DNA of 12,406 nt from Fimbriimonadia bacterium (GCA_029824475.1 JALGYA010000076.1:1-12406); one strand, 5' to 3'. Counted from the first letter of the stretch, positions 1-12,406 are shown. Numbers and translations are program-made. Notes: generated by a model from the sequence alone, not told the origin.

Positions 1-1875
1 ATCAAGAACCCATGGCGCCTCGTCGATCGTGATGACCTGGCGTGTCGGATATCCGGCCGCCGTTTCCGTACGGATGCGTAGGTGGAACAGGTCGGAGACG
101 AGATCGAAGGCAAGCTGATCACAGCCAATAAGGGCGTGGCCAAGTTGGGCCACGCTACATTCACCACGCCCACGGCGGGCATCGAAACTCAAGGTGTGGG
201 TCGCATACCTCAGAAGAGCTACCCGGTAGACGACCCAGTCCTCGTCCTGCTTGAGGGAGAAACATGCCTTCCGAATCCTTCGCACAGTCTCAAGCATCAT
301 CCGGAACCTAAGATCCCAACGCACGAACGACAAGGTCTCGGGAATAGCTTCGACTGCCGCTGGCACCCGCTGGTTGACCAAGTACTCCTCAAAAGCACGC
401 AGGCGTGGAAAATCCTCCAGCCCAAGCGACTTCATCATGACGAACTTCGCATCATTCTCCATCTTCGCGAAGTCGAGCTCTATTGCGGCTCGTCCACAGT
501 GAGTCCAGTCAATGAACCAAACGTTATCCCCTTCGTCGCAGATGACATTGGCGAAGTTCAGGTCACCATGCGCTAGGCATGTATCGCCCTCCAGGCCGGC
601 CTGGTTCGCAGTCACAACCCGAAAAATCCTGAGCAATTGCTTCAGGTTGACCCCAATGTCTTCCACTTCCTCTTCCTCGAGGTAGCCAAGGATGACGCCC
701 GCATTCTCCTCCAGCCAATTTGCCTGCTGTTCGACATGCAAGCCGAAATCCCGGTAGGGAACGACGTGATCACGCTCGATCGTATTCGAATACAGACGCT
801 TCACGAGAAGGTCGAGCGTCTTATCGAGCCGGAGGAGGAAATGCTGCAGGTCGCCGTCATTGTGGATGTCCTCATATGTGTCCTGCTCGGTCTGCGGCGC
901 ACCTTCCATCGCGGCGAGTTCCATCCCTACGCCGATCCATTCACCCTTTGTCACTGGATAACCCAACGCCGGAACATGCTTACCGAGAAAATCCTTCACC
1001 TGGTAATAGCCGGCCAGCTCACGGCGCATCTGATCGAATGCATCGACCTTTAACACCATCGGCTCGGTCCGCGCGTTGTCCTTCCAACCCTCCGCCAGAA
1101 ATAATAGGCTCCCGCTGAAGCCGCCCGCTAGAGGTCGCAAGTGCGTGCGCGTCCAGTGCATGCAGAGGAGTTCGACAATCCGTTTTGGGTCGCTCCCTAA
1201 CTCTTCTTCGACCTCAGCCGGCTCGATCGCGCAGGCACCGGGAACCTGGCCAGGAAAATCCAGAGGAAGGCCAGCAAACGCTGCTGTCTCATCCATATCC
1301 AACAGCACCTGGACGCCGAGACCAGGAAGCGTGTGCCGCAGCACGGCAAGGTGAGCCTCCTTGGTGACACTCCCCACGAGATGCGCCGCTACAGCGACGT
1401 CATCGCATCGGAACACTCGCCGAAGGAACACAGAAAGCGCGAGGATACGCTCTTCCGTATGACAGCCGACGACAAGGAAGCGAAGCATCCCCCGCGCATC
1501 AGGATCGAGGGGGTCTACCCCTGTCAAATCCCGGACTGCAGCCTGCAACCCCTCTGCGGGAATACGCCCCGGTGAAGTGTCCAGGATACGGGCACCCTCA
1601 AGCCGCTGGTCAAAGGGAGGGGCAAGACCCTCACCCTCCTCTTGGACTTCATTGATCACGAGCAATCCAACAGACGACGTGGAAGTGCGCGCATGGTCCA
1701 GGAACCGTGGCAAAGGACCAGCACCGAACCCACGACCGCGACCGATGAGGCGCTCAATCTCACGTTCGCCAACACTGCCACGACCTCCAAGGAATCGGGC
1801 TTCGGGGCTTACTGTAGATGAGTCCAGCCCCGCCGCAACGACTACTGTGAATGGGCGCTCGCGAGAAATGGTCAA
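1..1875 (-). CDS. Phosphotransferase-family protein (APH / choline-kinase-like fold) with an unassigned N-terminal domain of about 230 aa. 3'-truncated: the C-terminus lies beyond the window start.
   Basis: I translated the minus strand by hand; this frame is open from 1908 down to position 1 with no stop. It is absent from the ORF track, probably because it has no stop in the window. Kinase-fold motifs: Gly-rich loop 'PLAGGFSGSLLFLAEG...MVLKV' at about 1040-1130, Brenner catalytic motif 'LAHGDLNFANVICDEG' at about 560-610, and 'WFIDWTHCG' (the DxD/IDW metal-binding motif). The G-loop to HGD spacing of about 183 aa is typical of APH/ChoK enzymes. Start: TTG at 1875..1873 overlaps the kef stop TGA (1874..1872) as TTGA, and the SD-like GAGGAG (plus 1884..1889) sits 8 nt upstream. 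The N-terminal 230 aa ('PFTVVVAAGLDSSTVSPEARFLGGRGSVGEREIERLIG...') could not be assigned to a family. Confidence 0.7.
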   Translation of the reverse strand, partial: MTISRERPFTVVVAAGLDSSTVSPEARFLGGRGSVGEREIERLIGRGRGFGAGPLPRFLDHARTSTSSVGLLVINEVQEEGEGLAPPFDQRLEGARILDTSPGRIPAEGLQAAVRDLTGVDPLDPDARGMLRFLVVGCHTEERILALSVFLRRVFRCDDVAVAAHLVGSVTKEAHLAVLRHTLPGLGVQVLLDMDETAAFAGLPLDFPGQVPGACAIEPAEVEEELGSDPKRIVELLCMHWTRTHLRPLAGGFSGSLLFLAEGWKDNARTEPMVLKVDAFDQMRRELAGYYQVKDFLGKHVPALGYPVTKGEWIGVGMELAAMEGAPQTEQDTYEDIHNDGDLQHFLLRLDKTLDLLVKRLYSNTIERDHVVPYRDFGLHVEQQANWLEENAGVILGYLEEEEVEDIGVNLKQLLRIFRVVTANQAGLEGDTCLAHGDLNFANVICDEGDNVWFIDWTHCGRAAIELDFAKMENDAKFVMMKSLGLEDFPRLRAFEEYLVNQRVPAAVEAIPETLSFVRWDLRFRMMLETVRRIRKACFSLKQDEDWVVYRVALLRYATHTLSFDARRGRGECSVAQLGHALIGCDQLAFDLVSDLFHLRIRTETAAGYPTRQVITIDEAPWVLD

Positions 1876-4133
1876 GTTGCTGTCTCCTCGCGGACCAGGC
1901 CGCGGTAATTATGGCCGACCGCCCCAAACAGAGCCCGAAGTCGGTCTACGTGAGAAGTCACTGAAAGAAGCTGCCGTTTAAGGTCTGTATCCAAGCCGGT
2001 TTCCCCGAGATAGCGCTCTCGAATCCGAGCGAGCCCGCTGTTATCGGCAGAGGTCATCGCGCGCAGCAATGCGAAGTCGGTCTCGTTCGGTTCCTCCGCA
2101 AGCTCCCGAAGGCTGTGCAGGATCGCATCCAGCGCCTCCACGACGACACCAGCGAGGGTGCGGGTCCTGTCATCCTGCTCAAGCTTTTTTAGCTCAAATC
2201 CCAGCCGCTCCAACTCTGAATTCATTGCCTCAAGACGCCGTTCATTATCTTGAAGAAGCCCAATCCGTTCATATTGCTCAGGCGAGAGGGAACCAGCCGT
2301 GGTGAGACGGTCGAGTGCATCACTGATAATCATCCCCAGCGCCTGGAATGAGCTGTGCAGGGCCTTGATCGACATCACGTCGTTGCCCTCCCGGTACCGC
2401 TCAAAAAGATCGGAGTGAATCTGAAGGAGCCGACCCTGCTCCAAGCGGATGAGGTCGATACTCCTTTCCGGATCGCCCGATGCCTCGATTTCATGGAGAT
2501 AGCGAAGCGCGCTCGTCTGCTCAGCAAGTCGACGCGACTGCGAGATCTGCTCGACGAGAGACTCAGCAACCTGGCTGTTCCCATCCAAAAGCAGTTGATT
2601 GTTCGCACCATCCATATCCTTGAGCTCTTCCTCACTCGAGACGCGCGCGATCACCTTGATCTTCGGATCAATCTGCTCGAGTGCGGCCGTCGTCCGGGCA
2701 ACGGTACTGCTGTCGTCTAAAGCGAGCACAACACCCATTGCCTTGCGAACGGCGAGCCGCTCAAGAAGGATTCGGTCAGACGGATCTCCAAAGACGGCTG
2801 CTTGGGCATCCCCCCGCGCCGCGACAAAATCCGCAGTGCTGGCAGCAACTACCACATGGCGGATGCCGGCCGCTTCCAGGCGCTTCGCGACGGCGCGGCC
2901 AAAAGCACCATAGCCGCAAAGCACCACGTGGTCGCCCAATCGCTCGTCCACTTCATCCGCTTTGGAACCGACGGCACCGCGGGTCACCGCCCGGATGATC
3001 GTGTCGGATCTCTGGATTAGGAAAGGTGTCGCAATCATCGAGACGACGACCGCGGCGACCAACAACTGGGAGACTTCATCGTCGAGCATTCCGTGCCCGA
3101 TCAACAACGAAAGCACGACCAGCGAGAATTCGCCTACCTGAGCAAGACTCAGTGCAGTCTTGAGTGAAACTTCTTTGCCGACCGACCGCGTGAGCAGAAG
3201 AAAGATGCAGGCAGCCTTGAACAGCATCATGCCTGCGGCGAGCAGTAGGATCCAATGGCCGCTGTCCGCGATGAAACCGTGTTCAATCCGAAAGCCCACC
3301 GTCACGAAGAAGACACCCAGGAGAAGATCCCGGAAAGGAATCAGGTCTGCTTCTACCTGATGCCTGTGAATGCTGTCGGCAATGAGATGACCTGCGAGAA
3401 ACGCACCCAGGGAATAAGGAAAGCCGAAGGCGTGAGTCAGCCATGATGCACCGATCACGACCACAAATATGGCCCCCATGAAAATCTCCTTCGAGTTCGC
3501 GCCTGCGACAGCCTCGAAGAACAGGCGAAGCAGTCGCCGGCCGACGAGCAGCAACATAGCCAGCACAATCACAGCATTGCGCCCCGTCTCCAAAAGGAGC
3601 TCCCCCATCCCCCCTTCCTGGCTGGTGAACACAGTCACCATGAGCAGGATGGGGATCACCGCGATGTCCTGAAAGACCAGGATTCCGACTGCTGAGCGCC
3701 CGTACTCAGACTTCATCTGTCCGGCCTCGTTCAGTAGCTTAAGGACGATGGCCGTTGACGAGAGAGCGAGGCCACCACCGAGTACCGAAGCCGCACGACC
3801 GTCGATCCCGAAGACACCCCAAGCAATCAATGCCATCAGCACGCCGGTTACGACCACCTGAGCGCCACCGAAACGCAGGACCTCACGACGCATCTCCTTC
3901 AGATGGGCGACGGAAAATTCCAACCCGATGGTAAACATCAGGAAGACAACGCCGAACTCCGCAATGTGCTCCAGCTCCTCGCTGTGCAACGCCTTCTCAC
4001 CGACCACCGGCCCCAGAGCCGCGCCGGTGAGGATGTAGCCAATAACCGTTGGAATCCCAACACGCTTCAGGAGCACATTCAGGATCGTCGCAATGGCGAT
4101 CGCGAGGATCAATAGCGGAAGCAACTCGTGCAT
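1872..4133 (-). CDS. Kef-type monovalent cation:proton antiporter (CPA2 family, K+ efflux) with a cytoplasmic RCK_N/TrkA-N regulatory domain. The RCK_N domain is followed by an atypical coiled-coil-rich C-terminal extension of about 230 aa.
   Basis: 753-aa ORF with an ATG start. The N-terminal 380 aa are polytopic membrane sequence typical of Kef/NapA ('MHELLPLLILAIAIATILNVLLKRVGIPTVIGYILTGAALGP', 'GLEFS', multiple TM helices). It has a Rossmann GxGxxG motif, 'VVLCGYGAFGRAVAKRLEAAGIRHVVV', and an RCK_N ending '...KIKVIARVSSEEELKDMDGANNQLLL'. The last 230 aa are charged and helical ('LRYLHEIEASGDPERSIDLIRLEQGRLLQIHSDLFERYREG...') and do not look like RCK_C. Confidence 0.85.
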   Translation of the reverse strand: MHELLPLLILAIAIATILNVLLKRVGIPTVIGYILTGAALGPVVGEKALHSEELEHIAEFGVVFLMFTIGLEFSVAHLKEMRREVLRFGGAQVVVTGVLMALIAWGVFGIDGRAASVLGGGLALSSTAIVLKLLNEAGQMKSEYGRSAVGILVFQDIAVIPILLMVTVFTSQEGGMGELLLETGRNAVIVLAMLLLVGRRLLRLFFEAVAGANSKEIFMGAIFVVVIGASWLTHAFGFPYSLGAFLAGHLIADSIHRHQVEADLIPFRDLLLGVFFVTVGFRIEHGFIADSGHWILLLAAGMMLFKAACIFLLLTRSVGKEVSLKTALSLAQVGEFSLVVLSLLIGHGMLDDEVSQLLVAAVVVSMIATPFLIQRSDTIIRAVTRGAVGSKADEVDERLGDHVVLCGYGAFGRAVAKRLEAAGIRHVVVAASTADFVAARGDAQAAVFGDPSDRILLERLAVRKAMGVVLALDDSSTVARTTAALEQIDPKIKVIARVSSEEELKDMDGANNQLLLDGNSQVAESLVEQISQSRRLAEQTSALRYLHEIEASGDPERSIDLIRLEQGRLLQIHSDLFERYREGNDVMSIKALHSSFQALGMIISDALDRLTTAGSLSPEQYERIGLLQDNERRLEAMNSELERLGFELKKLEQDDRTRTLAGVVVEALDAILHSLRELAEEPNETDFALLRAMTSADNSGLARIRERYLGETGLDTDLKRQLLSVTSHVDRLRALFGAVGHNYRGLVREETAT

Positions 4134-4161
4134 CAGTTCAGGCGGAGGGTCGCTCGATGGA

Positions 4162-4494
4162 TCAAAAGCCCTTCATTGCTTCGTCCTCGTTGTCATAGAC
4201 ACCGAGAATCGAGCTGAATCCACTCATATCGAAGACCTCGCGCACGGTCTCGTTCAGGCTGCAGACCCGGAGCTCGCCATTGGATGCACCAAGTTGCTTG
4301 GCGGTCCACAGCAGGATACGCAGTCCGGCACTACTGATGTAGTCCAAAGCGCGAAAGTCGGCGAGCATTCGCCCAGCGCCATCGGAGATGAGCGCAGCGA
4401 TCTTCTCCTCTGCTTCTGGAGCGGTATTCGTATCGAGGTTTCCCTCGAAGCGGACCACGCAGACGTCGTCAATTCTTTCGATGGTGAGTTGCAT
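4162..4494 (-). CDS. STAS-domain anti-sigma-factor antagonist (RsbV/SpoIIAA-like anti-anti-sigma).
   Basis: 110-aa single STAS domain with an ATG start. It has a conserved phosphorylatable-serine motif, 'DFRALDYISSAGLRILL' (compare SpoIIAA/RsbV 'DLSFMDSSGLGVIL'). It lies 5 nt downstream of the HATPase_c kinase gene and 28 nt upstream of kef. Confidence 0.9.
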   Translation of the reverse strand: MQLTIERIDDVCVVRFEGNLDTNTAPEAEEKIAALISDGAGRMLADFRALDYISSAGLRILLWTAKQLGASNGELRVCSLNETVREVFDMSGFSSILGVYDNEDEAMKGF

Positions 4495-4499
4495 TGGTT

Positions 4500-6191
4500 C
4501 TATTCAGATTCGATGGGGCCTTCGCCCTGGTTCAGGAACTTCACGACCGTCACGATGTTACGGTCAATTTTTCTGGTGTAGTGGGTCTCGTCCATCATTG
4601 ATTCGACGAGGTGGATGCCGAGGCCACCAATCTTTCGCTCGGCGATCGGCAGTGATGTATCCGGCGAGACGTGTGCGAACGGGTTGAAAGGAACTCCTTC
4701 GTCCTCAACCGTGAGGACCAGACGGGTTGGGGTTAGGTCAAAACGAACCCCAATGGAATGCTCTGCGTCGTCGGGACCATCGACGAATGCGTACGAAATC
4801 ACATTGTTCAGCAACTCGTCAAACGCCATCGCGGTCGTCCTCCGGACCTTATCCTCGACACCGTTATCCGCTGCGAACTCCTGGAACCGCTCCAGGACCA
4901 CTGCGATCTCCTCGAGCCGGCTTGCAATCCGAAACTCAAGCACTCCCATGGTTGCAGGGTCCGATGCGCCCGCGAATGAGAGCGCCATCACAGTGATGTC
5001 ATCCGCCTGCTCAGCCTTGCCCTGGAACTCCCAGACGCGCGACACGACATCATCGACCATCCCCTTGACCGCGGCCGGCCCGCCCTTCAGGCAATCCACC
5101 AGCGGTTCCTCCCCATACAGATGACCCTTCTCATTCATCGCTTCGGTGATGCCGTCGGTGTAGACCAACAGCCGGTCACCTCGAGTCATCTCCTGCTCGC
5201 TCTCACCATAGGTCATGCCGGGCACCGCAGCAACGATCGGTCCATGAAGCTCAGCGAGCCGGCGTGGGGGATCCTCTTCGTGGAGCAGGAATGGCGGGTT
5301 GTGGCCTGCATTGGTGAACCGCAACTTTCCAGTGTTCAAGTCAAGGATCCCCAGCCATACAGTCACGAACATGCACGAATCATTGCTGTGCCCGAGTTCA
5401 TCGTTGACATGAGTCAGGATGCTCGCCGGAGACACATCATTCGTCGCCCGCGACTTAATCAGGGTCTTGGTCATCGCCATGAACAGGGCGGCTGGAACAC
5501 CCTTGCCCGAGACGTCACCCACGCAGATGCAAAGACGCTCTTCCCCAATCAGGAAGAAGTCGTAGAAGTCGCCTCCGACCTCGCGTGCTGGATGCAGTGC
5601 TGCGTGGATGAGGAACTCAGTTCGATGGGAGTAGGCATCAAAGTCCTCCGGCAGCATGCTCATCTGGATATCGCGGCCGATGGTGAGCTCGCCCTCCATG
5701 CGCTCCTTTGCCGTCGTCGTCCGCTGGAGGTCCTCAATCGACTTTCGAAGCTCAGCGTTACTAGCCGTCAGGTCTGACATGAGCTCATCCCGGGACCTCT
5801 GCAGCAGCACGGCTCGCACCTCTGCAACGGTCCGCTCATCCGATGCACAGGCACCGTGAATCCCAAAATATGCAGTTGCGATCGCCTCGCCCGGCGCATG
5901 GGAGCCTTGAAACTCAATGAACTCGGCGAGCGCCTCAGGCACCGATTCCAACTTGAACGCTGGGAACGTGAGAACGATCACCCACTTGGCTCCGCGGTTT
6001 TCCAGTGCCAACTCAATTTGGCCGCTGTCGCATGACGAACGAAGACCTCGAGCGAGTACTGAAACAGCCGTACCGAATCGCGCTGCTGCAACTCGGTCGC
6101 CGCAAATGAGTTCACAGGCCATTCGAGCCTTGCTTCGTGAAGCGACAACGGAGTCAATCCCGAGGAAGGACAATGCGCCGAGAGGAATCAT
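4500..6191 (-). CDS. Fusion protein: N-terminal domain of unknown type (about 140 aa), coiled-coil, PP2C/SpoIIE-type serine phosphatase (RsbU/RsbP-like), then a C-terminal RsbW/SpoIIAB-like HATPase_c anti-sigma-type serine kinase.
   Basis: The ORF track gives 4500..6200, which starts at a GTG. The preferred start is the ATG at 6191..6189: it forms an ATGA overlap with the upstream gene's TGA stop, and the SD-like GAGGTG sits 6 nt upstream. PP2C motifs match B. subtilis RsbU: 'GELTIGRDIQMSMLP', 'REVGGDFYDFF', 'ICVGDVSGKGVPAALFMAMTKTLI', 'LLVYTDGITEA', 'ADDITVMAL'. The C-terminal HATPase_c resembles RsbW: 'AFDELLNNVISYAF', 'LVLTVEDEGVPFNP', 'GGLGIHLVESMMDE'. Confidence 0.88.
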   Translation of the reverse strand: MIPLGALSFLGIDSVVASRSKARMACELICGDRVAAARFGTAVSVLARGLRSSCDSGQIELALENRGAKWVIVLTFPAFKLESVPEALAEFIEFQGSHAPGEAIATAYFGIHGACASDERTVAEVRAVLLQRSRDELMSDLTASNAELRKSIEDLQRTTTAKERMEGELTIGRDIQMSMLPEDFDAYSHRTEFLIHAALHPAREVGGDFYDFFLIGEERLCICVGDVSGKGVPAALFMAMTKTLIKSRATNDVSPASILTHVNDELGHSNDSCMFVTVWLGILDLNTGKLRFTNAGHNPPFLLHEEDPPRRLAELHGPIVAAVPGMTYGESEQEMTRGDRLLVYTDGITEAMNEKGHLYGEEPLVDCLKGGPAAVKGMVDDVVSRVWEFQGKAEQADDITVMALSFAGASDPATMGVLEFRIASRLEEIAVVLERFQEFAADNGVEDKVRRTTAMAFDELLNNVISYAFVDGPDDAEHSIGVRFDLTPTRLVLTVEDEGVPFNPFAHVSPDTSLPIAERKIGGLGIHLVESMMDETHYTRKIDRNIVTVVKFLNQGEGPIESE

Positions 6192-7264
6192 CGCACGCAC
6201 CTCAACACGATGCAGCTGGCGTCATCATGAGACTTGCCATACTTCTCCACAATCGCCCGCGCGAAGTCCTGGGGCTTCTGGAACCGAGTATCAGAAGCGG
6301 GAATTCTGGCGAGCCGGTCGCTTACCCCATCAGAATGCATCACGACAAGGTCCGTCGGCCCCATGACCATTGACTGGATGGTCGGCGTGCGCATGCGCCC
6401 GCCAAGAACCCCCTCGGCATAGTGAAACGAAATGGCTCGCCCGCCAAGGTGCCGAAGCGACACATTGCCGACCCCTGCGAACTCCAGCGTGCGCTCCTCC
6501 GCGCGAAAATACACCACCGCAGCGGCAGCCCCCAGACTCCCTTTAAGGCCGTGACCAAGCCGTTCAACTGCTCGCACAGGATCGACATCAAATTCCTCTG
6601 CCAGCAAACGACGAGCTCGCATGGCAACTTCGTACGCACCCATTCCATGCCCGAGCCCATCGATCAAGGCAGCTCGCTGAACTTGCTCGGAATGATCGAA
6701 GAAGACCTGATCTCCACTGAATCTTTCACCTAGGCTGGGGCGAATGAAAAACCCGCATTGAATTCCGAACTGATCTTCCGCTCCTCGCGCAACTCCTCCA
6801 AAGCCTCTGCCATCGACGGCCCCCAAGGACTTACCACCCTCCAGTGAGATGGAGCCTGAATCGCGCGTGATGCCCCTGCGACAGTGAATAGCAATCCGTA
6901 CCAGTGTTCCAGTTCCTACCTCGGATTCCAGCTCAAACTCATCCACCATCCGCTTTATCCCTGGAAGGCCAAGCCCAAGTGTTCCACTGGAACTGAAATG
7001 ATCCTCGAGCGCCTTCTCGATATCAGGTATCCCAGGACCCTGATCCCGCGCGATTGCCTGACAACCTGGGGCATTCGTATTCAGAACTTGGAATTCGATC
7101 TCCCCAGACTCCGCGTACTTCAAGATATTACGGCCAAGTTCCGAGACCGAAGTCGCGAACTTGTTGACTTCCGGCAATGCAAGTCCCGCCCTCTTCGCGA
7201 TCTGGGTCGCCATAAGCACGGCTCGCGTGAGTGAGCCTTCGGAGTCGACACGCGCCTTATCCAT
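6188..7264 (-). CDS. rsbT: Fusion protein: RsbT-like HATPase_c serine kinase (stressosome kinase) at the N-terminus and an RsbX-like PP2C feedback phosphatase at the C-terminus.
   Basis: The ORF track gives 6188..7279, which starts at a GTG. The ATG at 7264..7262 is better supported: the SD GGAGG sits 3 nt upstream, and it overlaps the rsbS stop by 8 nt. The N-terminal half closely matches B. subtilis RsbT: '[19 protein letters not shown]' versus 'ISELARNIFLYAGKGQIGI', and '[55 protein letters not shown]' versus '[56 protein letters not shown]'. The C-terminal half has RsbX-like PP2C motifs: 'SGDQVFFD', '[14 protein letters not shown]', 'FAGVGNVSL', 'LVVMHSDGV', '[10 protein letters not shown]'. 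Confidence 0.88.
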   Translation of the reverse strand: [358 protein letters not shown]

Positions 7265-7727
7265 CTTCCTCCAAGCCACCCTCTCCGCCTTCCTCTGGAC
7301 CCAGCTCGTCGAGCTCGGCCTCAGTCAGATCAGCGGTGCTATCGCCCCGATTGCCATCCTTGTGCGCCTGCATGGCTCGAAAAGCGTCATCCAGGTCGAG
7401 CACCGCATCGATCGATCGCACGTCTGCTGCCAAGTCAATCAATGAGGAAACGACTCCGGGACGCAGACCTGCTACCAGACATCGAGCACCAAGGAGCTTG
7501 GCCATGTCGAGCGTCTTCCGTAATGCATCGAAGTCCGTCAAGTCCAGGATTTCGACACCTGCCACGTCAAGGATCACTCCACGGGCACCTGTCCGGTGAA
7601 GTAGCGCGAGCAGGTCCTCTCGAAGGTCAGCAACGCGTTTTTCATCCAGGTCTCCCTGGATTGAGGCCACGATGCAACCTTGGGTGAGCTGCAGCGGTAC
7701 GGCTCCGGCTCTCGATTCCAAGCTCAA
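7257..7727 (-). CDS. rsbS: RsbS-like single-STAS-domain stressosome scaffold protein.
   Basis: 156 aa. 'VPLQLTQGCIVASIQGDLDEKRVADLREDLLALLHRTGARGVILDVAGVEILD...' is collinear with B. subtilis RsbS '[53 protein letters not shown]...'. The start is TTG at 7727..7725, which forms a TTGA overlap with the rsbR stop. The C-terminal tail is acidic, 'ELDELGPEEGGEGGLEEDG'. Confidence 0.85.
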   Translation of the reverse strand: MSLESRAGAVPLQLTQGCIVASIQGDLDEKRVADLREDLLALLHRTGARGVILDVAGVEILDLTDFDALRKTLDMAKLLGARCLVAGLRPGVVSSLIDLAADVRSIDAVLDLDDAFRAMQAHKDGNRGDSTADLTEAELDELGPEEGGEGGLEEDG

Positions 7728-8629
7728 CGCTTCACGCGCTTCGTGCTGATTTCCATTCCCGAGCGTTGGAAAGCGTCAGAGAGTGCATCCTTCATCGTGG
7801 CCGTCGTCTTGATGCTGCCGACGTCAATGCCCAGGTCGACGATGGTCTGCGCGATCGCAGGCGAAAGGCCCGAGATGGTGCACTCACAACCCATCAGCCG
7901 GGTTGCACTGGTGATTTTAATGAGGTTGTTTGCGACTGCAGTATCCACTACACCGACACCACTGATGTCGAGGATGAAGATCTGCGCCTGCGTCTCGGCG
8001 ATCTTGGCGAGAGTCGCATTCATGATGTCTCCCGCACGGTGCGAGTCGATGATGCCGACAATGGGAAGCAGCAGGATCCCTTCCCAAATCTGCGTCACGG
8101 GCGTCGACATCTCCATCAGCGCCTTCGACTGGGAAGTGAGCATGTCCTCAACAACCGCGTTGTACGAGTCAACAATGATCGCGGCATCCAGGTGCGCTAC
8201 TTTCGTAATCGCGCCCTGAACCGCGACGACCTCCTCTTGAGGCAACTCCTGAGTAAGAAGCTGACAGATAATCTCCAGGAAGGTGTTCACGCCGGACCAG
8301 TACGAACTGAGCTGCAGGCCGATCCGCGCGTGAGTCTGCCCGACGCGAAACCTAGTCGCGACATAGGCCTCGTCAATCTCGGCCGTGAAGAGTTGACGCC
8401 AGAACTCTACCTGTCGCGCCTGGGCACTCTCCAGAAGATCTGCGTCAGAGAAGAATTGAGTGAACTCGGGCCGGGTCTCCATCCAATCGTAGAAACGAGT
8501 GAGGAGCTCCGGGAGGCGCGCCTCCAACTTGGGAGCAGCACTGCGGACCAGATCAAGATCTGAGTCAGACACCAGGAACTGGGTCTTCAATTCCTCGGGG
8601 TTATTCGAACTGTGGTTGTACTGGGTCAT
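7724..8629 (-). CDS. rsbR: RsbR-like stressosome sensor: N-terminal globin-coupled-sensor-type (non-haem or haem globin) domain plus a C-terminal STAS domain.
   Basis: 301 aa with an ATG start. The C-terminus closely matches the B. subtilis RsbR STAS domain, including both phospho-threonines: 'FILDISGVGVVDTAVANNLIKITSATRLMGCECTISGLSPAIAQTIVDLGIDVGSIKTTATMKDAL' versus 'ILDITGVPVVDTMVAHHIIQASEAVRLVGCQAMLVGIRPEIAQTIVNLGIELDQIITTNTMKKGM'. The N-terminal 170 aa have sensor-globin features: 'FYDWMETRPEFTQFF...VEFWRQLFTAEIDEAYVATRFRVGQTHARIGL'. Confidence 0.88.
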   Translation of the reverse strand: MTQYNHSSNNPEELKTQFLVSDSDLDLVRSAAPKLEARLPELLTRFYDWMETRPEFTQFFSDADLLESAQARQVEFWRQLFTAEIDEAYVATRFRVGQTHARIGLQLSSYWSGVNTFLEIICQLLTQELPQEEVVAVQGAITKVAHLDAAIIVDSYNAVVEDMLTSQSKALMEMSTPVTQIWEGILLLPIVGIIDSHRAGDIMNATLAKIAETQAQIFILDISGVGVVDTAVANNLIKITSATRLMGCECTISGLSPAIAQTIVDLGIDVGSIKTTATMKDALSDAFQRSGMEISTKRVKR

Positions 8630-8637
8630 GACTAGCC

Positions 8638-10458
8638 CTATTTGCTCAGTTGAAGGACGACCTCAATGCCGTCCTGAAGTGTACGCTCCGTGCGGATACC
8701 CTCGAGTGCTAGATCGAGGTCCACAATCGTGCGCGCGGCGTCCGCTTGAACGCCGGTAATGACGACCTCCGCACCGAGGAGCCGCGCGGACCTCGCGGCG
8801 CGCGCCAACCCGGTCGCGACAGTTTCATCGAGGCGGGGCAATCCGGTGAGGTCAAGAATCGCCGCGCGCGCGCCACGCTTATGGAGACCCTCCACAAGCA
8901 TTTCACGGACATGCTCGATTCGCCGTTCGTCCATCTCACCCACAAGCGGCATGACGACGACGTCTTCTTGCAGGGAGATCAAAGGTGTTGAAAGCGCATC
9001 GATCGCCTCATTCTGCTTGGCAACCATCTGTTCAAGTGAGGCACGCATCGTCTCCAAACTCGCTCCCAATGCACCGAGTTCATCCCTGCGCGTGACCTCG
9101 ACTGGTTTATCCAGGTCGCCCTTAGCAAGTGAGGCAGCTACACCTGAAAGCCGCTCAATGGGACGTGTCAGGGAGCGAGCGAAGAACACTGCTCCGGCCA
9201 CAATCAGCGCCATGATTCCAATTTGCTCCAGGATGATCTGATTCCGCAACTCCTTCGCTGGTCCGAGTGCTTCAGCCTCATCGATCTCAGCCAACAGCGC
9301 CCAATCAATGCCAGGCAGGTCGAGTGGTCGATAACTCGAGAGCACTGGAACACCTCGGTAGTCCTCGAAGACTCCACGACCCGTATCTCCAGCCTGTACA
9401 GCCCTGACACCGGCAGTATCGACCACCTGCAGGCCGATCGCGCTCCCTTGAGCCTCAATTGAAGCAATCACTGAGGAGTCCTGACCGTGGCGCCGCAGGG
9501 TGCTGAGGTAGGACTCGCCATCCTCGACAAGGAACCTCGACTCGTTCCGCAGTGTACGGTCGGCGCCCACGATGTAGCACTCACCTGAGGCGCCAAGCCC
9601 GACATCCTCCCAACGGCCGCCGGTCGTCATGATGTCATCAATCCGATCGATCGGCACTTGAAAGGCAAGTACGCCTACCTGCTCGTCCCCATCGAAGATT
9701 GGCGACGCAATGAACGAGGCGCTCGCACCGTACGAAGGGAGATACGGCGAATAGTCCACCAGCTCCACACTCCCGGAAGTCGTTGCTGATGCCACCGCCT
9801 CGAAGCATGTCGCGAGGTTGGACTCACGATGGGGTCCTGATTTCAGCGACGTGCCAAAGTCCATCTCCTTAGAGGCACTGTAGACGACATTACCCGTCCT
9901 GGAATCGATCAGGAATACGTCGTAGTAACCGAACCGCTCAAGGAAGGAGCGAAACAATGGATGGTAGCGCGCATGAGCATCCGCATAACTGCTGCCATCT
10001 CCAGGATCGTCGAGCAGTGCGCGGGAACCCAATGAAAACGGACTCCGCGCGAGGAAAAGGCGCTGGAGTTCCTGTCCCATTCGATTCTGCGGAATGAGGT
10101 CTGCAAGCGGGGGAGTGCCAGGCAAGGCCTCAAGCCGCGGCAGCACCTCCGACTCATAATGCAGGCGCAATTCAAGATCGTCGTCTCCAGATGGCTCGAC
10201 CCTGGCGAATGCCTCGGAGAATTCGCGCATCGCGCCGATCACCATCAGACTTTCCGAGAGAGTCAGGACTTGCCCCTCGACTGCCTGAAAGTAGGTGTGA
10301 ATTTGCTCCGCCTTTGTTTCCCTGACAACCGTCAACTTCTGAAACGCACCATCCAGCAAGGACTTTCTCGCCTGCCTATACGCCGTGTGCGCAGTCAGTC
10401 CCGACGCCGCGACCCCCACGAGCACGAGCAAAATCAGGGTTCGGATGCGGATGGACAT
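8638..10458 (-). CDS. Membrane-anchored STAS-domain sensor: signal-anchor/TM1, periplasmic double-Cache (dCache_1-like) domain, TM2, HAMP domain, cytoplasmic STAS domain. RsbR-paralogue-like stressosome input protein.
   Basis: 606 aa with an ATG start. TM1 is 'IRTLILLVLVGVAASGL'. The 330-aa extracytoplasmic region has dCache hallmarks: 'YYDVFLIDSRTGNVVYSASKE', 'VGVLAFQVPIDRIDDIM', 'GASGECYIVGADRTLRNESRF'. TM2 is 'IGIMALIVAGAVFFA'. The HAMP-like segment is 'RSLTRPIERLSGVAASLAKGDLDKPVEVTRRDELGALGASLETMRASLEQM'. The C-terminal STAS is 'VVMPLVGEMDERRIEHVREMLVEGLHKRGARAAILDLTGLPRLDETVATGLARAARSARLLGAEVVITGVQADAARTIVDL'. Confidence 0.85.
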   Translation of the reverse strand: MSIRIRTLILLVLVGVAASGLTAHTAYRQARKSLLDGAFQKLTVVRETKAEQIHTYFQAVEGQVLTLSESLMVIGAMREFSEAFARVEPSGDDDLELRLHYESEVLPRLEALPGTPPLADLIPQNRMGQELQRLFLARSPFSLGSRALLDDPGDGSSYADAHARYHPLFRSFLERFGYYDVFLIDSRTGNVVYSASKEMDFGTSLKSGPHRESNLATCFEAVASATTSGSVELVDYSPYLPSYGASASFIASPIFDGDEQVGVLAFQVPIDRIDDIMTTGGRWEDVGLGASGECYIVGADRTLRNESRFLVEDGESYLSTLRRHGQDSSVIASIEAQGSAIGLQVVDTAGVRAVQAGDTGRGVFEDYRGVPVLSSYRPLDLPGIDWALLAEIDEAEALGPAKELRNQIILEQIGIMALIVAGAVFFARSLTRPIERLSGVAASLAKGDLDKPVEVTRRDELGALGASLETMRASLEQMVAKQNEAIDALSTPLISLQEDVVVMPLVGEMDERRIEHVREMLVEGLHKRGARAAILDLTGLPRLDETVATGLARAARSARLLGAEVVITGVQADAARTIVDLDLALEGIRTERTLQDGIEVVLQLSK

Positions 10459-10548
10459 GAGATTAGAGTCAGGAAGTCGCCGACAAAGCGATTGTGCCCG
10501 ATAATACTCGGTCAGCCCTTGAATCGCGACCCGGGAGATCCCTTGAGT
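10459..10548 (-). promoter_or_regulatory. Intergenic region between flotillin and the sensor gene. Candidate promoter for the partner-switching operon: a -10-like TATTAT lies at 10506..10501 on the minus strand.
   Basis: This is the only intergenic gap of 30 nt or more upstream of the eight-gene array. The minus strand reads '...tcgcgattcaagggctgaccgagTATTATcgggcacaatcg...ATG'. The -10-like hexamer sits 42 nt upstream of the ATG, but I found no convincing -35. Confidence 0.25.
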
Positions 10549-11754
10549 TCATTTCAGCTCCGGCGGGAGCGAGGAATCTCCTTGCTGAACCTTGTTGGCA
10601 AGTTTAGCGATGTCGATGCCTGTCGCGTTTTTCAACTGCTCCAGCATGGCCACTGCTGATCCAGCTACGTTCCGCACATGCCCTGGCAAGGCTCCCCCTT
10701 CTCCCCCATCGACAATCGTCAGCTTATCAATCCTGAGGTTATCAGCAACCGTGCGAGTGACTTGCTCCATCAAGGTGGGTAGGAGCTGGATTAGGAATAG
10801 ATCCTTTGCGTCCTCACCTACCCATTGACCGCGAAGCAGCTCAAGCGCCTCGGCAGTGGCACGCCCTTCTTCGCGGATACGCGCCGAGCTACCCTCGGCG
10901 CTTAGCAATCCGGCATCACGAGCAGCTTCGGCTGGAACAACGACGTCTGCCTGAGTCCGTTTGCGAGCAAGCTCAATCCGGCGCTCCTCAAGCGCGACTT
11001 CCTCTTCTGCACGAGCGATCGCACCAGCGACTGATGCACGCTCTTCCGCCCGGCTCTCCTCACCGGCAAGTTCAGCACGACGGACCTTGAGAGCGTTCTC
11101 TTCTCCGATCACGGACTGCTCAGATGAGATCTCCGCAATCCGAGCAAATTTGTCCTGCTCTGCAGCGACGCTCCGCGCTTCGGCGTCAGCAGTAGCCTCT
11201 GCTACTCGCGCATCTCGCTGCACAGCGGAATTACGCTGGCGGCCGATTGCCGTGAGATAACCAGCCTCGTCCGAGATATCTTGCACCTGAAAATAATCAA
11301 GCACGATGCCAAGGTCTCGCAAAAGCGCCCGCGAACGTTCGGTGACCTGTTGAGCCAGGTCGAGTCGCTCAGAGTTGGCATTCTCAGGTGACATCGTCGC
11401 CAACACGCCACGCAGGACGCCGCTGACCGCCTGCTTGGCTGCCTTGATCACCGCATCTTCCCCCTTGCCAAGAAAACGCTCAATGGCTGCATCCAATCCG
11501 TCCTCCTCGCGGCCAGCGAGCTTAACGCTGGCACGCGCATCGACATTGACCGGGATCATCCCCGCGCACATGGCCTTTCCCACCTGCAGATCGAGCCCTA
11601 TTGAGGTCAACGGAAGTCGCGCCACAGACTCAACGAGTGGCATTTTGAAGCCACGCCCACCTCGGATCACACGATAGCCTCTTGTATCGCCACCCCCCGT
11701 TTGCTTCCGGCGCGCCAAGTAGACGTTTGAGAATAGCCGCGTAGGAATACCCAA
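10549..11754 (-). CDS. Flotillin / SPFH (band-7) family protein, FloT/YqiK-like: the SPFH-domain body plus an EA-rich coiled coil. Its N-terminal membrane segment lies in a different frame (see 11630..12058).
   Basis: 'GYRVIRGGRGFKMPLVESV' matches FloT 'RIKIVRGGGTFVLPVFQ'. The coiled coil is long and Glu/Ala-rich ('AEATADAEARSVAAEQDKFARIAE...EERRIELARKR'), and the C-terminus has the flotillin motif 'LFLIQLLPTLMEQVTRTVADNLRIDKLTIVDGG'. The nominal start at 11754 is a TTG picked by the ORF tool; the true N-terminus is upstream in another frame. Confidence 0.85.
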   Translation of the reverse strand: MGIPTRLFSNVYLARRKQTGGGDTRGYRVIRGGRGFKMPLVESVARLPLTSIGLDLQVGKAMCAGMIPVNVDARASVKLAGREEDGLDAAIERFLGKGEDAVIKAAKQAVSGVLRGVLATMSPENANSERLDLAQQVTERSRALLRDLGIVLDYFQVQDISDEAGYLTAIGRQRNSAVQRDARVAEATADAEARSVAAEQDKFARIAEISSEQSVIGEENALKVRRAELAGEESRAEERASVAGAIARAEEEVALEERRIELARKRTQADVVVPAEAARDAGLLSAEGSSARIREEGRATAEALELLRGQWVGEDAKDLFLIQLLPTLMEQVTRTVADNLRIDKLTIVDGGEGGALPGHVRNVAGSAVAMLEQLKNATGIDIAKLANKVQQGDSSLPPELK

Positions 11755-12058
11755 AATAGCTGCCCATTGCTATCAGGACGTAGGGCCAGAAACGAATCGC
11801 AAGGACAATGATGCCTCCTCGCCCCCCACGCCTCCCGGAAGCCTTCCCGAGTTCGGCTGAATCAACAGCAGCAAACGGATCTTCCCAGCCCGATAGCAGG
11901 AAGATGCCAGCAGCCAAACAGTAAAGTGATGCGACTAGGCCGCCAACGGCAGCTGCCTTTGCTGCAGCATCCCAGCCGCGCTTGTCCACAGCTACAAGGG
12001 CATGAATGGTCACGAATGAGCCGACGAAGGCGATGAAAATGAAAGAGGCCTGGAACAT
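11630..12058 (-). CDS. N-terminal membrane portion of the same flotillin gene, in the -1 frame relative to the body, with 2-3 hydrophobic helices. The frameshift is probably at the C6 tract at 11693..11698, so this is either a pseudogene or a homopolymer sequencing error.
   Basis: ATG at 12058..12056. It has hydrophobic segments 'ASFIFIAFVGSFVTIHALVAV', 'AAAVGGLVASLYCLAAGIFLL' and 'GGIIVLAIRFWPYVLIAMGSYFGYSYAAIL'. The end of this frame, '...AAILKRLLGAPEANGG', joins collinearly to the body frame, 'GDTRGYRVIRGG...', if one G is removed from the G6 run on the coding strand. Compare FloT 'KYRTAGPDEALIVTGSYLGN...RIKIVRGGG'. Confidence 0.6.
   Translation of the reverse strand: MFQASFIFIAFVGSFVTIHALVAVDKRGWDAAAKAAAVGGLVASLYCLAAGIFLLSGWEDPFAAVDSAELGKASGRRGGRGGIIVLAIRFWPYVLIAMGSYFGYSYAAILKRLLGAPEANGGWRYKRLSCDPRWAWLQNATR
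11693..11698. repeat. C6/G6 homopolymer inside the flotillin gene, at the point where the reading frame changes.
   Basis: Plus strand 11691..11700 is 'caccccccgt'. Frame A (the N-terminal membrane part) and frame B (the SPFH body) both read through this run. Confidence 0.6.
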
Positions 12059-12219
12059 GAATTAGCTTTTCATGGTGCTTAACGGGATTGCCGTTCAGCT
12101 GACGCCGGGTCGCGAAGCGGTCCGGTGGTCGGCTGCAACGGCTGGTTAGAAAGCCTACAGAAATGTTTTGGTCCTTATTCAAAAACAACCGCGCATCAGG
12201 ATCCTTCATAACGCTCAAC

Positions 12220-12406
12220 TCATAGAAATAGCGCCAAGAGATATATCCAGAAGGAGCCTATCAAAAGAGTCAGAGCACCAAGGATGAGGGTTTCCAACTT
12301 TGCCTTCTTCCGACGTTTGGCGTGGAAAAAAAGACCAAAGCTGGCCGCAAAACCAAGCCCAATCCCTGCAATAAACACGCAGAACAGCCAAGCACTATCC
12401 ACTCCA
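12220..12406 (-). CDS. Hypothetical small 2-TM membrane protein. It may continue past the window end, and it may be spurious.
   Basis: The ORF 12220..12402 begins with GTG, and the frame stays open to the window edge. It has two hydrophobic helices flanking 'HAKRRKKAKLE'. It lies in the AT-richer, roughly 50% GC segment, and its codon usage differs from the neighbouring genes. Confidence 0.3.
   Translation of the reverse strand, partial: GVDSAWLFCVFIAGIGLGFAASFGLFFHAKRRKKAKLETLILGALTLLIGSFWIYLLALFL

Follow-up and report, generated by a model that had tools for sequence, protein, structure and literature searches.

A stressosome-type phosphorylation switch joined to a K+/H+ antiporter gene in a planctomycete operon

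The stretch of DNA analysed here (the window, 12,406 nucleotides) was confirmed to carry a complete stress-sensing phosphorylation switch joined to a K+/H+ antiporter in a planctomycete operon. Stress-sensing phosphorylation switches of this kind normally control a sigma factor. Two RsbR-type sensors, RsbS and an RsbT::RsbX fusion lie directly upstream of a fused PP2C::RsbW-like kinase and an RsbV-like STAS protein, and the gene immediately after the RsbV-like gene encodes a K+ transport protein, in the window a Kef antiporter. The eight genes are closely packed and all lie on the minus strand; strong Pfam matches bear out the coordinates given for them by an earlier, sequence-only reading. 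The junctions in the sequence also agree with that description. Four pairs of genes overlap at their start and stop codons (RsbR/RsbS, TTGA; RsbS/RsbT, ATGGATAA; RsbT/fusion, ATGA; Kef/TCAD9, TTGA) and the remaining gaps are 8, 5 and 28 nt, a packing that is operon-like. Flanking genes were read on contig JBTYED010000006.1 (GCA_054870265.1, a Planctomycetota MAG), to which the window is 99.96% identical over positions 1-11717.

The stressosome part

The membrane-anchored RsbR-type sensor (8638..10458, minus strand, 606 aa; Pfam HAMP 1.2e-17, STAS 9.5e-13, dCache_1 4e-9) consists of a dCache domain flanked by two hydrophobic segments, followed by a HAMP domain and a C-terminal STAS domain. Its dCache_1 match of 36.8 bits lies under Pfam's 45-bit gathering score. 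This sensor is kept at 47-61% identity in four relatives (L082, L083, L086 and L091). The second sensor is a globin-coupled RsbR of 301 aa (7724..8629, minus strand; Pfam Protoglobin 8.6e-30, STAS 2.9e-14), with the Protoglobin domain at about 8159-8590 and the STAS domain at about 7784-8101; it is present in every stressosome-type relative and shares its architecture with the RsbR of the Vibrio haem stressosome (PMC9237108, PMC4976288). Both proteins have the RsbR arrangement of an N-terminal sensor and a C-terminal STAS domain (Protoglobin and dCache-HAMP, respectively), and in both the STAS region matches RsbR/YtvA-type STAS in NCBIfam.

Beside them lies a single-domain STAS protein of the RsbS type (7257..7727, minus strand; Pfam STAS 1.3e-8), which has 156 aa when read from TTG 7727, overlapping the rsbR stop, and is 46-57% identical to its relatives. 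The NCBI call gives it 154 aa. The RsbT::RsbX fusion (6188..7279, minus strand; Pfam HATPase_c_2 1.3e-10, SpoIIE 1.1e-8) combines a GHKL Ser kinase (about 6893-7234) and a PP2C phosphatase (about 6200-6676) within one protein of 358-363 aa; the start is likely ATG 7264, which gives 358 aa. The fusion is common to all relatives.

The switch enzyme, the antiporter and the downstream genes

The switch enzyme (4500..6191, minus strand, 563 aa; Pfam SpoIIE 2e-48, HATPase_c_2 1e-21) begins with a degenerate GHKL domain of the RsbW/RsbT type (5802-6191) and ends in an RsbW-like Ser kinase (4539-4925); between them lie a long linker helix (5658-5792) and then a PP2C phosphatase (4974-5543). Its start at ATG 6191, in a reading frame spanning 4500-6200, is supported by a conserved MIxLG N-terminus; the NCBI start lies 23 codons further inward. 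The enzyme had been labelled RsbU-like, a name that does not fit its N-terminus: RsbU_N was considered there and rejected in favour of the extra degenerate GHKL domain. Pfam finds no Response_reg domain, and hence no HsbR-type receiver, in the window's enzyme. Pfam and NCBIfam both place the C-terminal kinase domain squarely in the RsbW/SpoIIAB type.

The RsbV-like STAS antagonist (4162..4494, minus strand, 110 aa; Pfam STAS 1.2e-20) matches the NCBIfam anti-sigma factor antagonist model above its cut-off (3.2e-25). Ser55 (codon 4330-4332) lies in the sequence I-S-S-A-G-L-R, and the [SA]-S-A-G-L-R motif, with an invariant Ser, recurs among the 10 transporter-linked STAS proteins compared. The PP2C phosphatase, GHKL kinase and STAS protein with a conserved phospho-serine are those of an RsbU/RsbV/RsbW-type switch, and the catalytic residues are invariant.

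The Kef-type CPA2 K+/H+ antiporter (1872..4133, minus strand, 753 aa; Pfam Na_H_Exchanger 2.5e-53, TrkA_N 1.3e-16) has the CPA2 membrane domain (3018-4100) and KTN/RCK nucleotide-binding domain (2613-2927, with the motif GYGAFG) of KefB and KefC. It stays below equivalog level for either (KefC, 306.8 bits against a cut-off of 752; KefB, 276.7 against 804; NCBIfam), and the cluster contains no KefF/KefG-type gene. Its C-terminal domain (1896-2519), previously described as novel, is in fact PhoU-like: it has the six-helix PhoU fold of two three-helix bundles, though Pfam PhoU gives no match to it even at E<=1. The domain is located on a K+/H+ antiporter and not in a role with a phosphate transporter. 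By sequence its relatives are the C-termini of a Na/Pi-cotransporter subfamily, which account for 81 of the 96 matches scanned (picked mostly for length), and the C-terminus of a Halieaceae-type Na/Pi cotransporter is 35-36% identical to it.

The last gene of the cluster had been read as an APH-like kinase. A kinase-like gene is indeed there, and lies downstream in all four planctomycete-type clusters; the product is better described as a TCAD9 kinase with a NUDT9-H-like domain. The window holds the first 625 of its 853 aa (1..1875, minus strand; Pfam TCAD9 1.9e-25, APH 4.7e-7), starting at TTG 1875, the sole start upstream of the conserved N-terminus, and the gene extends 686 nt past the window. 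The protein has three parts: a conserved N-terminal domain with no assigned fold, spanning about residues 1-225, the TCAD9/APH protein-kinase-like domain with the motifs HGDLNFAN and FIDW, and, at the end, a NUDT9/TRPM2 NUDT9-H-like domain. Homology of the last part to NUDT9, covering the N-terminal region and the Nudix fold, is indicated by a PDB sequence search (1q33, 5.8e-16; TRPM2 NUDT9-H, 2e-12) and a precomputed NUDT9_N match. The consensus of the catalytic Nudix box is REUxEE. Judged by eye against this consensus, the box is degenerate: the region is unaligned to 1q33, and in four of four homologues it reads RV.. or is absent. An inositol-monophosphatase-family gene always comes next after the TCAD9-NUDT9 gene. 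We infer that the two products form a lineage-specific accessory pair, which probably binds or converts an ADP-ribose-like nucleotide.

Gene neighbourhoods and the output of the switch

On the source contig, the genes up to 10 kb away on each side match no sigma-factor Pfam family, and none of 12 related loci with called genes contains a sigma factor. The claim that the cascade lacks one stands within these limits, and the sigma factor that serves as kinase partner in RsbUVW-type operons does not occur in the surveyed loci. A gene-neighbourhood analysis, set as a test beforehand, came out favourably: the link to K+ transport and the kinase-like gene are conserved, and the sigma factor is absent from these loci. 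The linkage as originally proposed, with Kef itself, needs amending, since the nearest relatives carry a K+ channel instead.

The three closest full-length relatives retain the order dCache-HAMP-STAS, globin-RsbR, RsbS, RsbT::X, fusion, RsbV, ion channel, TCAD9-NUDT9, IMPase, with switch-enzyme fusions that are merely 49-56% identical. Their channel is a K+-selective cyclic-nucleotide-gated channel with the filter TTVGYGD, so that the Kef slot is filled by a non-homologous K+ protein; in L082, L083 and L086 the TCAD9-NUDT9 gene stays 3' of the channel gene. In L098, L101 and L117 a dCache-HAMP-PP2C::kinase and RsbV are joined to a K+ channel, and in Halieaceae-type clusters an Na/Pi cotransporter gene abuts RsbV (gap, -1 nt). 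Kef+PhoU homologues (~50% identical) adjoin STAS, RsbW-like kinase and PP2C genes in 4/4 readable contigs, with unrelated inputs (phosphorelay, CHASE2, dCache/HAMP). In one locus Kef follows STAS, and the RsbW and CHASE2-PP2C genes are divergent; another has STAS, RsbW, dCache and HAMP-PP2C before Kef, and two have a hybrid histidine kinase-Hpt, REC-PP2C-kinase, STAS and Kef.

Could the adjacency be inherited synteny or chance, without functional meaning? The three closest relatives also share the upstream amtB-glnK-glnA-flotillin genes, so part of the conserved order reflects common descent. Against this, Kef+PhoU homologues in Gammaproteobacteria and Desulfuromonadaceae keep the STAS/kinase/PP2C set amid different flanking genes, the slot has been refilled by different K+ proteins, and of 80 distant PP2C::kinase loci a single one has a Kef gene within 10 kb. 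We therefore disfavour synteny or chance as very improbable.

Direct post-translational gating of K+ flux best explains these neighbourhoods, and we lean towards a stressosome-fed Ser/Thr partner switch with potassium transport, not a sigma factor, as its output. The sensors would set the share of active switch enzyme through its N-terminal RsbT/RsbW-like pseudo-kinase domain and coiled-coil linker, and the enzyme, whose phosphatase and kinase work in opposite directions, would set the phosphorylation of RsbV Ser55. RsbV in one of its states, or the kinase domain that RsbV displaces, may then bind the transporter's cytoplasmic regulatory region (for Kef and the Na/Pi cotransporters, the PhoU-like domain) and open or close K+ flux without new transcription. 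Gating of transport by a protein in a phosphorylation-dependent way has precedents: besides PtsN and YcgO, compared below, the STAS protein MlaB regulates the ABC ATPase MlaF (PMC7367683), and the phospho-states of HsbA have differing non-sigma partners (PMC5085249). Two observations complicate direct gating. The K+ channels of channel-linked clusters lack the PhoU-like domain, so no one docking domain covers all cases. The RsbV of the window shares 50-60% identity with RsbVs linked to channels or NaPi, against 25-42% with other Kef-linked STAS proteins; its similarity tracks the upstream module rather than the transporter type, which counts against direct gating because a direct RsbV-transporter interface would have had to be re-established at transporter swaps.

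The switch might instead govern a sigma factor or transcription regulator encoded elsewhere, with the transporter, kinase-like protein and phosphatase as co-transcribed cargo for the same stress. HsbR, a related fused REC-PP2C-kinase, acts with its STAS partner HsbA on RpoS and FlgM, whose genes are not its neighbours (PMC6482189, PMC5085249); the kinase domain of the window is of the genuine RsbW/SpoIIAB type, and our inspection covered 21.6 kb around the cluster, out of a 56 kb contig in an incomplete MAG. However, whichever of five input architectures is present, and across three phyla or more, the transporter stays beside the STAS gene, and no regulator is ever co-conserved with the clusters compared. 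In lineage P0351 transposase genes lie upstream of the Kef unit in both contigs (L172 and L173, the latter stopping right after Kef) and also downstream in L172, where the unit so enclosed holds solely a binding protein, histidine kinase, REC-PP2C-kinase, STAS and Kef. Nor would co-expression account for a PhoU-like domain common to two unrelated transporters in the slot. We consider a regulator elsewhere fairly unlikely.

PhoU reports PstSCAB activity to PhoR. By analogy, the transporter could be an input, its PhoU-like domain reporting transport activity or ion status to a switch with some other target. Every cluster already has sensors (globin, dCache, CHASE2, or a hybrid histidine kinase with a periplasmic binding protein), so that this arrangement would have many inputs and zero output, and the channel-linked clusters lack the domain; we regard it as improbable. 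The evidence for transport as output is gene order in metagenome-derived contigs from about ten independent lineages, a small number.

Comparison with known systems and implications

The cluster has the same domains, in the same logical order (RsbR/S/T, RsbX, RsbU, RsbV, RsbW), as the Bacillus subtilis sigma-B cascade: STAS scaffolds, the GHKL kinase RsbT, a PP2C feedback phosphatase, a PP2C output phosphatase with a helical linker, a phospho-serine STAS antagonist and an RsbW-type kinase. Unlike that cascade, the window lacks sigB and has a K+ transporter gene in its place; RsbT and RsbX form one fused protein, as do PP2C and the RsbW-like kinase. In RsbU, the four-helix bundle RsbU_N binds RsbT (PMC12143880), whereas the window PP2C carries a degenerate GHKL domain in its place.

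The haem-globin RsbR, the minimal rsbRSTX-type module without sigB and the Gram-negative-type organism recall the stressosome of Vibrio vulnificus and V. brasiliensis (PMC9237108, PMC4976288). There, two-component proteins are encoded downstream and RsbU/V/W are absent (PMC9237108); the window, in contrast, has the full PP2C/kinase/STAS switch, an ion transporter and a second, membrane-anchored RsbR paralogue. As in Pseudomonas HptB-HsbR-HsbA, PP2C and an RsbW-like kinase share one polypeptide, which acts on a small STAS protein, and non-sigma outputs are included (PMC5085249, PMC6482189). The Kef-linked modules in L172-L175 have the exact HsbR domain order, REC-PP2C-HATPase_c_2; the window enzyme differs in lacking a receiver domain and being stressosome-fed. 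HsbA is known to work through FlgM, RpoS control and a diguanylate cyclase; no transporter is among its known partners.

Functionally, the mechanism proposed here comes nearest to the control of YcgO by PtsN (EIIA-Ntr) in E. coli: YcgO is a K+/H+ antiporter, and PtsN binds its extra C-terminal domain when not phosphorylated (PMC11808508). The likeness is that the phosphorylation state of a small protein decides binding to an extra cytoplasmic domain after the antiporter RCK (PMC11808508). The proteins come from unrelated families (the small protein is a PTS EIIA there and a STAS protein in the window; the antiporter is a CPA1 member with a CorC domain there and a CPA2 member with a PhoU-like domain in the window), and PtsN is phosphorylated on His by a phosphorelay, where in the window a GHKL kinase would phosphorylate Ser. 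Glutathione-gated KefC/KefB, the best NCBIfam matches, share the CPA2 membrane domain and the KTN/RCK with GxGxxG; the window antiporter differs in its low score (307 versus 752 bits for the equivalog), the extra PhoU-like domain of ~215 aa and the lack of a KefF/KefG partner gene.

The recurrence of a switch-to-ion-transporter link in unrelated bacteria suggests a largely undescribed direct control of ion flux. More broadly, and with a little less confidence than we would need to call it probable, ion transport proteins may be a previously unrecognised output class of bacterial Ser/Thr partner switches: Kef and Na/Pi transporters would offer the STAS protein or its kinase a dedicated PhoU-like receiver domain to bind, cyclic-nucleotide-gated K+ channels would be further targets, and planctomycetes would add an ADP-ribose-type nucleotide handled by the TCAD9 kinase/NUDT9-H protein. 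If so, a stressosome, phosphorelay or CHASE2/dCache sensor could alter the flux of K+, H+ or phosphate in a matter of seconds, without transcription. TRPM2 is gated by ADP-ribose, and the pairing of an ADP-ribose-type nucleotide with TCAD9 kinase/NUDT9-H in planctomycetes would echo that gating.

Gene content and surroundings of the cluster

Eight genes, all on the minus strand, occupy positions 1-10458 of the window, as established by ORF listing, translation, and Pfam and NCBIfam scans. They encode a dCache-HAMP-STAS membrane protein (606 residues), RsbR (Protoglobin-STAS, 301 residues), an RsbS-like STAS protein (156 residues), RsbT::RsbX (HATPase_c_2 and PP2C domains, 363 residues), an RsbU::RsbW-like fusion of PP2C and HATPase_c_2 domains (4500-6191), a STAS protein of the anti-sigma-factor-antagonist type (RsbV, 4162-4494, 110 residues), a CPA2 antiporter with a TrkA_N/RCK domain (Kef, 1872-4133, 753 residues), and a kinase-like TCAD9/APH protein (1-1875) that extends past the window edge. 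Four start/stop overlaps were read from the sequence (RsbR/RsbS, TTGA; RsbS/RsbT, ATGGATAA; RsbT/fusion, ATGA; Kef/TCAD9, TTGA), together with intergenic gaps of 8, 5 and 28 nt, so the tight packing described in the sequence-only reading is accurate. A scan of the window for consensus promoters and terminators gave counts equal to those of shuffled controls, with every site intragenic, and no Rfam or tRNA features are present. It is therefore their packing that argues for probable co-transcription of the eight genes.

The fusion protein is identical to one in a Planctomycetota metagenome-assembled genome (MAG), where it is encoded on a 56-kb contig (GCA_054870265.1, JBTYED010000006.1; referred to as L001). 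The window matches this contig with 99.96% identity over positions 1-11717 and diverges completely from 11718 onward, within a Band_7 gene. Because collinearity stops there, we regard the window as coming from a slightly different assembly. In the non-collinear segment (11718-12406), the Band_7/flotillin gene lacks its native N-terminus (METAELIG...) from position ~11717, where it is joined to unrelated sequence with a 142-residue hydrophobic ORF (11630-12058). Four substitutions separate the two records (3362, 6887, 8438 and 8461), the first being a His/Tyr change in Kef. The divergence and substitutions represent an assembly variant or a rearrangement.

On L001, the cluster is preceded by amtB, glnK (P-II), glnA and the flotillin-like Band_7 gene. 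At the other end, the kinase-like gene reaches a length of 853 residues; an inositol-monophosphatase (IMPase)-family gene comes next, and after it genes on the opposite strand. Within 10 kb of the cluster in both directions, L001 has no gene with a listed sigma-factor domain, in keeping with the earlier claim that the cascade lacks a sigma factor. The amtB-glnK-glnA-Band_7 set lies directly upstream in three lineages (L001 1190-5574; L083 476-4906; L086 38-4426), with fusions that share only about 50% identity. Either this adjacency is inherited synteny or K+ control is linked to nitrogen assimilation.

The switch enzyme and the kinase-like protein

Homologues of the fusion share the N-terminal sequence MIxLGxI, which places the true start at the ATG at 6191, where ATGA is shared with the stop of the preceding gene; the start annotated by NCBI lies 23 codons further into the gene. 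The N-terminal domain (5802-6191) has no Pfam family at E<=1. In a consensus of 20 homologues, examined by eye, it has neither the N-box asparagine nor the DxGxG box, and we therefore treat it as a pseudo-kinase. It is an RsbW/SpoIIAB-like GHKL fold devoid of the ATP-binding boxes, so that two GHKL-type domains flank the PP2C domain in one protein. Its nearest relative within the window is the RsbT domain (E 4e-4), compared with E 0.46 for the fusion's own C-terminal kinase domain. The catalytic residues of the PP2C and kinase domains are invariant in 26 homologues. The label RsbU-like, given to the fusion from sequence alone, does not hold for its N-terminus, which is the degenerate GHKL-like domain and not the four-helix bundle RsbU_N. 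In stressosome systems that have been characterised, RsbT acts through this bundle to activate its targets, namely RsbU, diguanylate cyclases and histidine kinases (PMC12143880). The long helix of the fusion is consistent with the coiled-coil linker described in the same paper.

The last gene of the window had been described as an APH-like kinase. The kinase motifs HGDLNFAN and FIDW are indeed conserved in the TCAD9 homologues, but the label is incomplete, as this TCAD9 protein has a C-terminal part whose homologues include human NUDT9 (1q33, E 5.8e-16) and the NUDT9-H domain of TRPM2 channels (E 2e-12). This domain is encoded at L001 15990-16809, beyond window position 1. The alignment to 1q33 leaves out the Nudix-box region, which looks degenerate by eye in each of the four homologues; this suggests that the domain binds a ligand and does not hydrolyse one. 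The N-terminal ~225 residues (window 1176-1875) are also conserved in all four (e.g. GRGRGxGxGPLP and LVVGCHTE), and no Pfam family was found at E<=1 for the N-terminal 230 residues; the NCBI gene model starts 72 codons late and drops part of this conserved region. The name TCAD9 prompts a reading as a defence system, but this is unsupported, given that the window has no PADLOC, plasmid-collection, Rfam or tRNA matches. The NUDT9-H-like domain and the kinase-like enzyme are parts of one protein, whose gene adjoins that of an ion channel or antiporter. The TRPM2 cation channel of animals is gated by ADP-ribose through its NUDT9-H domain. The IMPase-family gene is followed by a 428-residue TrkA_N (RCK) protein in one relative (L083 16724-18010) and by a GAF-PP2C phosphatase in another (L086 16185-17456), so that these neighbourhoods hold additional PP2C and K+-regulatory components.

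Ion transporters beside the partner switch

The PP2C::kinase family is large (7,976 matches at E<=1e-10). Among the matches listed, we took as background 80 distant loci from genomes, 33-49% identical to the fusion and with the N-terminal domain unmatched. These usually have an RsbV-like gene nearby; Kef lies within 10 kb in only one of the 80, and RsbR, RsbS, RsbT or TCAD9 in none. The transporter link is therefore not general to the family. Alignment of the N-terminal domain to metagenomes returned, among the matches listed, mostly generic PP2C linkers and five short true matches.

The full cluster order is kept in three metagenome lineages (L082, L083/84 and L086; fusions 49-56% identical), which encode dCache-HAMP-STAS, globin-RsbR, RsbS, RsbT::X, the fusion and RsbV, followed by a channel of ~460 residues (Ion_trans and cNMP_binding), TCAD9/NUDT9 and the IMPase-family gene. 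The channels carry the K+ selectivity signature TTVGYGD, indicating that the Kef slot is filled by a non-homologous K+ protein. Of the proposed adjacency to Kef and an APH-like gene, what is retained in these relatives is a K+ transport protein and TCAD9, but the transporter is a channel, not Kef. In Halieaceae-type relatives (44% identical; L087, taken from a 4.8-Mb contig, and L088/89), the genes for globin-RsbR, RsbS, RsbT::X, the fusion and RsbV precede one for a 529-residue Na/Pi cotransporter, whose start abuts the RsbV stop. In three further metagenome loci (L098, L101 and L117), a K+ channel gene comes immediately after those for a dCache-HAMP-PP2C::kinase and RsbV. In L117 (3901-6120), a SulP transporter with its own STAS and a cyclic-nucleotide-binding domain follows the PP2C::kinase, RsbV and channel genes as a second ion transporter; the channel filter of this locus is SVGFGD rather than TVGYGD. 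Four looser relatives (L002, L003, L028 and L168) have no transporter after RsbV.

The reciprocal view was obtained from Kef. Full-length homologues of ~750 residues that include the C-terminal extension are common, with over 120 clusters at ~50% identity; their hosts include Gammaproteobacteria, Cycloclasticus, Desulfuromonadaceae and a Verrucomicrobiaceae isolate. Homologues were chosen solely for the extent of their surrounding DNA, and in all four whose surroundings could be read, STAS, RsbW-like kinase and PP2C genes adjoin Kef with no sigma factor, which bears out the proposed linkage from this side. In Cycloclasticus (L170), the STAS gene is directly upstream of Kef, and the genes for an RsbW-like kinase and a CHASE2-PP2C protein are both divergent on the other side. 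The Desulfuromonadaceae locus (L171) encodes, on one strand, STAS, an RsbW-like kinase, a nitroreductase, dCache, HAMP-PP2C, three further genes and Kef. The remaining two (L172/173 and L174/175) have a periplasmic binding protein or domain, a hybrid histidine kinase with Hpt, REC-PP2C-HATPase_c_2, STAS and Kef. The unit of L172 (1-12128) has five genes, for the binding protein, hybrid histidine kinase-Hpt, REC-PP2C-kinase, STAS and Kef with its PhoU-like domain. It is flanked on each side by transposase genes (rve, HTH_Tnp_1), which suggests that it can move as a self-contained module. Counting all transporter-linked STAS proteins, the serine of the [SA]-S-A-G-L-R motif is kept in 10 of 10. 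The gene contexts were all read from MAGs or metagenome contigs, and only about ten independent lineages are represented. That the adjacency arose by chance or inherited synteny is unlikely, given this reciprocal result and the background of one in 80 among the matches listed.

The Kef-linked enzymes of L172/173 and L174/175 have the same domain order as HsbR of Pseudomonas. HsbR-type enzymes control RpoS, which is encoded elsewhere (PMC6482189), and the main rival to a transporter output is that the switch targets a distant sigma factor and the transporter is merely co-expressed; we consider this possible but rather doubtful.

The C-terminal domain of Kef has no Pfam family at E<=1; it aligns to the last 207 residues of the Halieaceae Na/Pi cotransporter with 36% identity (E 5e-31). 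One specific PhoU-like domain is therefore common to two unrelated transporters that are encoded directly after RsbV. It is also present in all four Kef homologues (42-45% identity, E ~1e-52) but absent from the K+ channels and from the SulP protein. A word-indexed search with this domain matched one fragment; a profile run against 1.84 billion representative proteins found only 299 relatives at E<=1e-3. Of 96 scanned, picked mostly for length, 81 are Na/Pi cotransporters and two are CPA2 antiporters; in two others, a eukaryotic-type Pkinase domain takes the place of the transporter. NptA-type transporters bearing PhoU-like domains have already been described (PMC13170248). The PhoU fold would also allow signalling in the reverse direction, the transporter reporting to the switch, but we think this improbable.

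A transporter as the proposed output of the switch

Five input architectures reach the PP2C, RsbW-like kinase and STAS components across the loci (stressosome, phosphorelay, CHASE2, separate dCache/HAMP proteins, and fused dCache-HAMP), and an ion transport protein is the sole other gene class that stays with them. The simplest reading of these gene contexts is that the transporter is the output of the partner switch. Control would be post-translational, since the module switches by protein phosphorylation and contains no component that binds DNA. The RsbT::RsbX enzyme may write and erase stressosome phosphorylation, and the RsbT-like pseudo-kinase domain of the fusion may dock on the STAS scaffold or pair with released RsbT, passing its signal through the linker helix. 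One phosphorylation state of the STAS protein, or the kinase domain that it releases, would then bind the transporter at its cytoplasmic regulatory region. In Kef and the Na/Pi cotransporters, the PhoU-like domain suggests itself as a candidate receiver.

Such gating has its closest functional parallel in E. coli, where unphosphorylated PtsN inhibits YcgO, a K+/H+ antiporter to which it binds at an extra domain located after RCK (PMC11808508). The STAS protein MlaB, which acts on the MlaF ATPase (PMC7367683), and HsbA, which has phospho-state-specific, non-sigma partners (PMC5085249), are further precedents. The RsbV of the window is 50-60% identical to the channel- and Na/Pi-linked RsbVs, whereas it is 25-42% identical to other Kef-linked STAS proteins. 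Thus, the STAS protein follows its enzyme while the transporter is swapped, and a direct STAS-transporter interface would need re-tuning each time.

The components all belong to known families and the signalling logic is that of a known partner switch; the output class and the Kef-RCK-PhoU architecture appear to be new. In the part of the full-text literature covered, no paper was found that connects partner switching, or STAS proteins of a single domain, with Kef, with K+ channels or with the PhoU-like domains of antiporters, and a review of STAS-only proteins names no cation transporter or K+ target. Stressosomes are widespread outside Bacillales and partner switches are usually regarded as controllers of transcription. 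To our knowledge, few stressosome outputs have been characterised: sigma B, a diguanylate cyclase and two-component proteins. If the proposed output is correct, it would offer a simple testable system, combining STAS phospho-mimics with a transport assay. A function would be assigned to the widespread ~750-residue Kef subfamily and its PhoU-like domain, and the coupling of transporters to signalling proteins by PhoU-type domains would reach beyond phosphate. The stressosome itself would gain a direct physiological output: the control of ions, pH and turgor through K+ antiporters, K+ channels and Na/Pi cotransporters.
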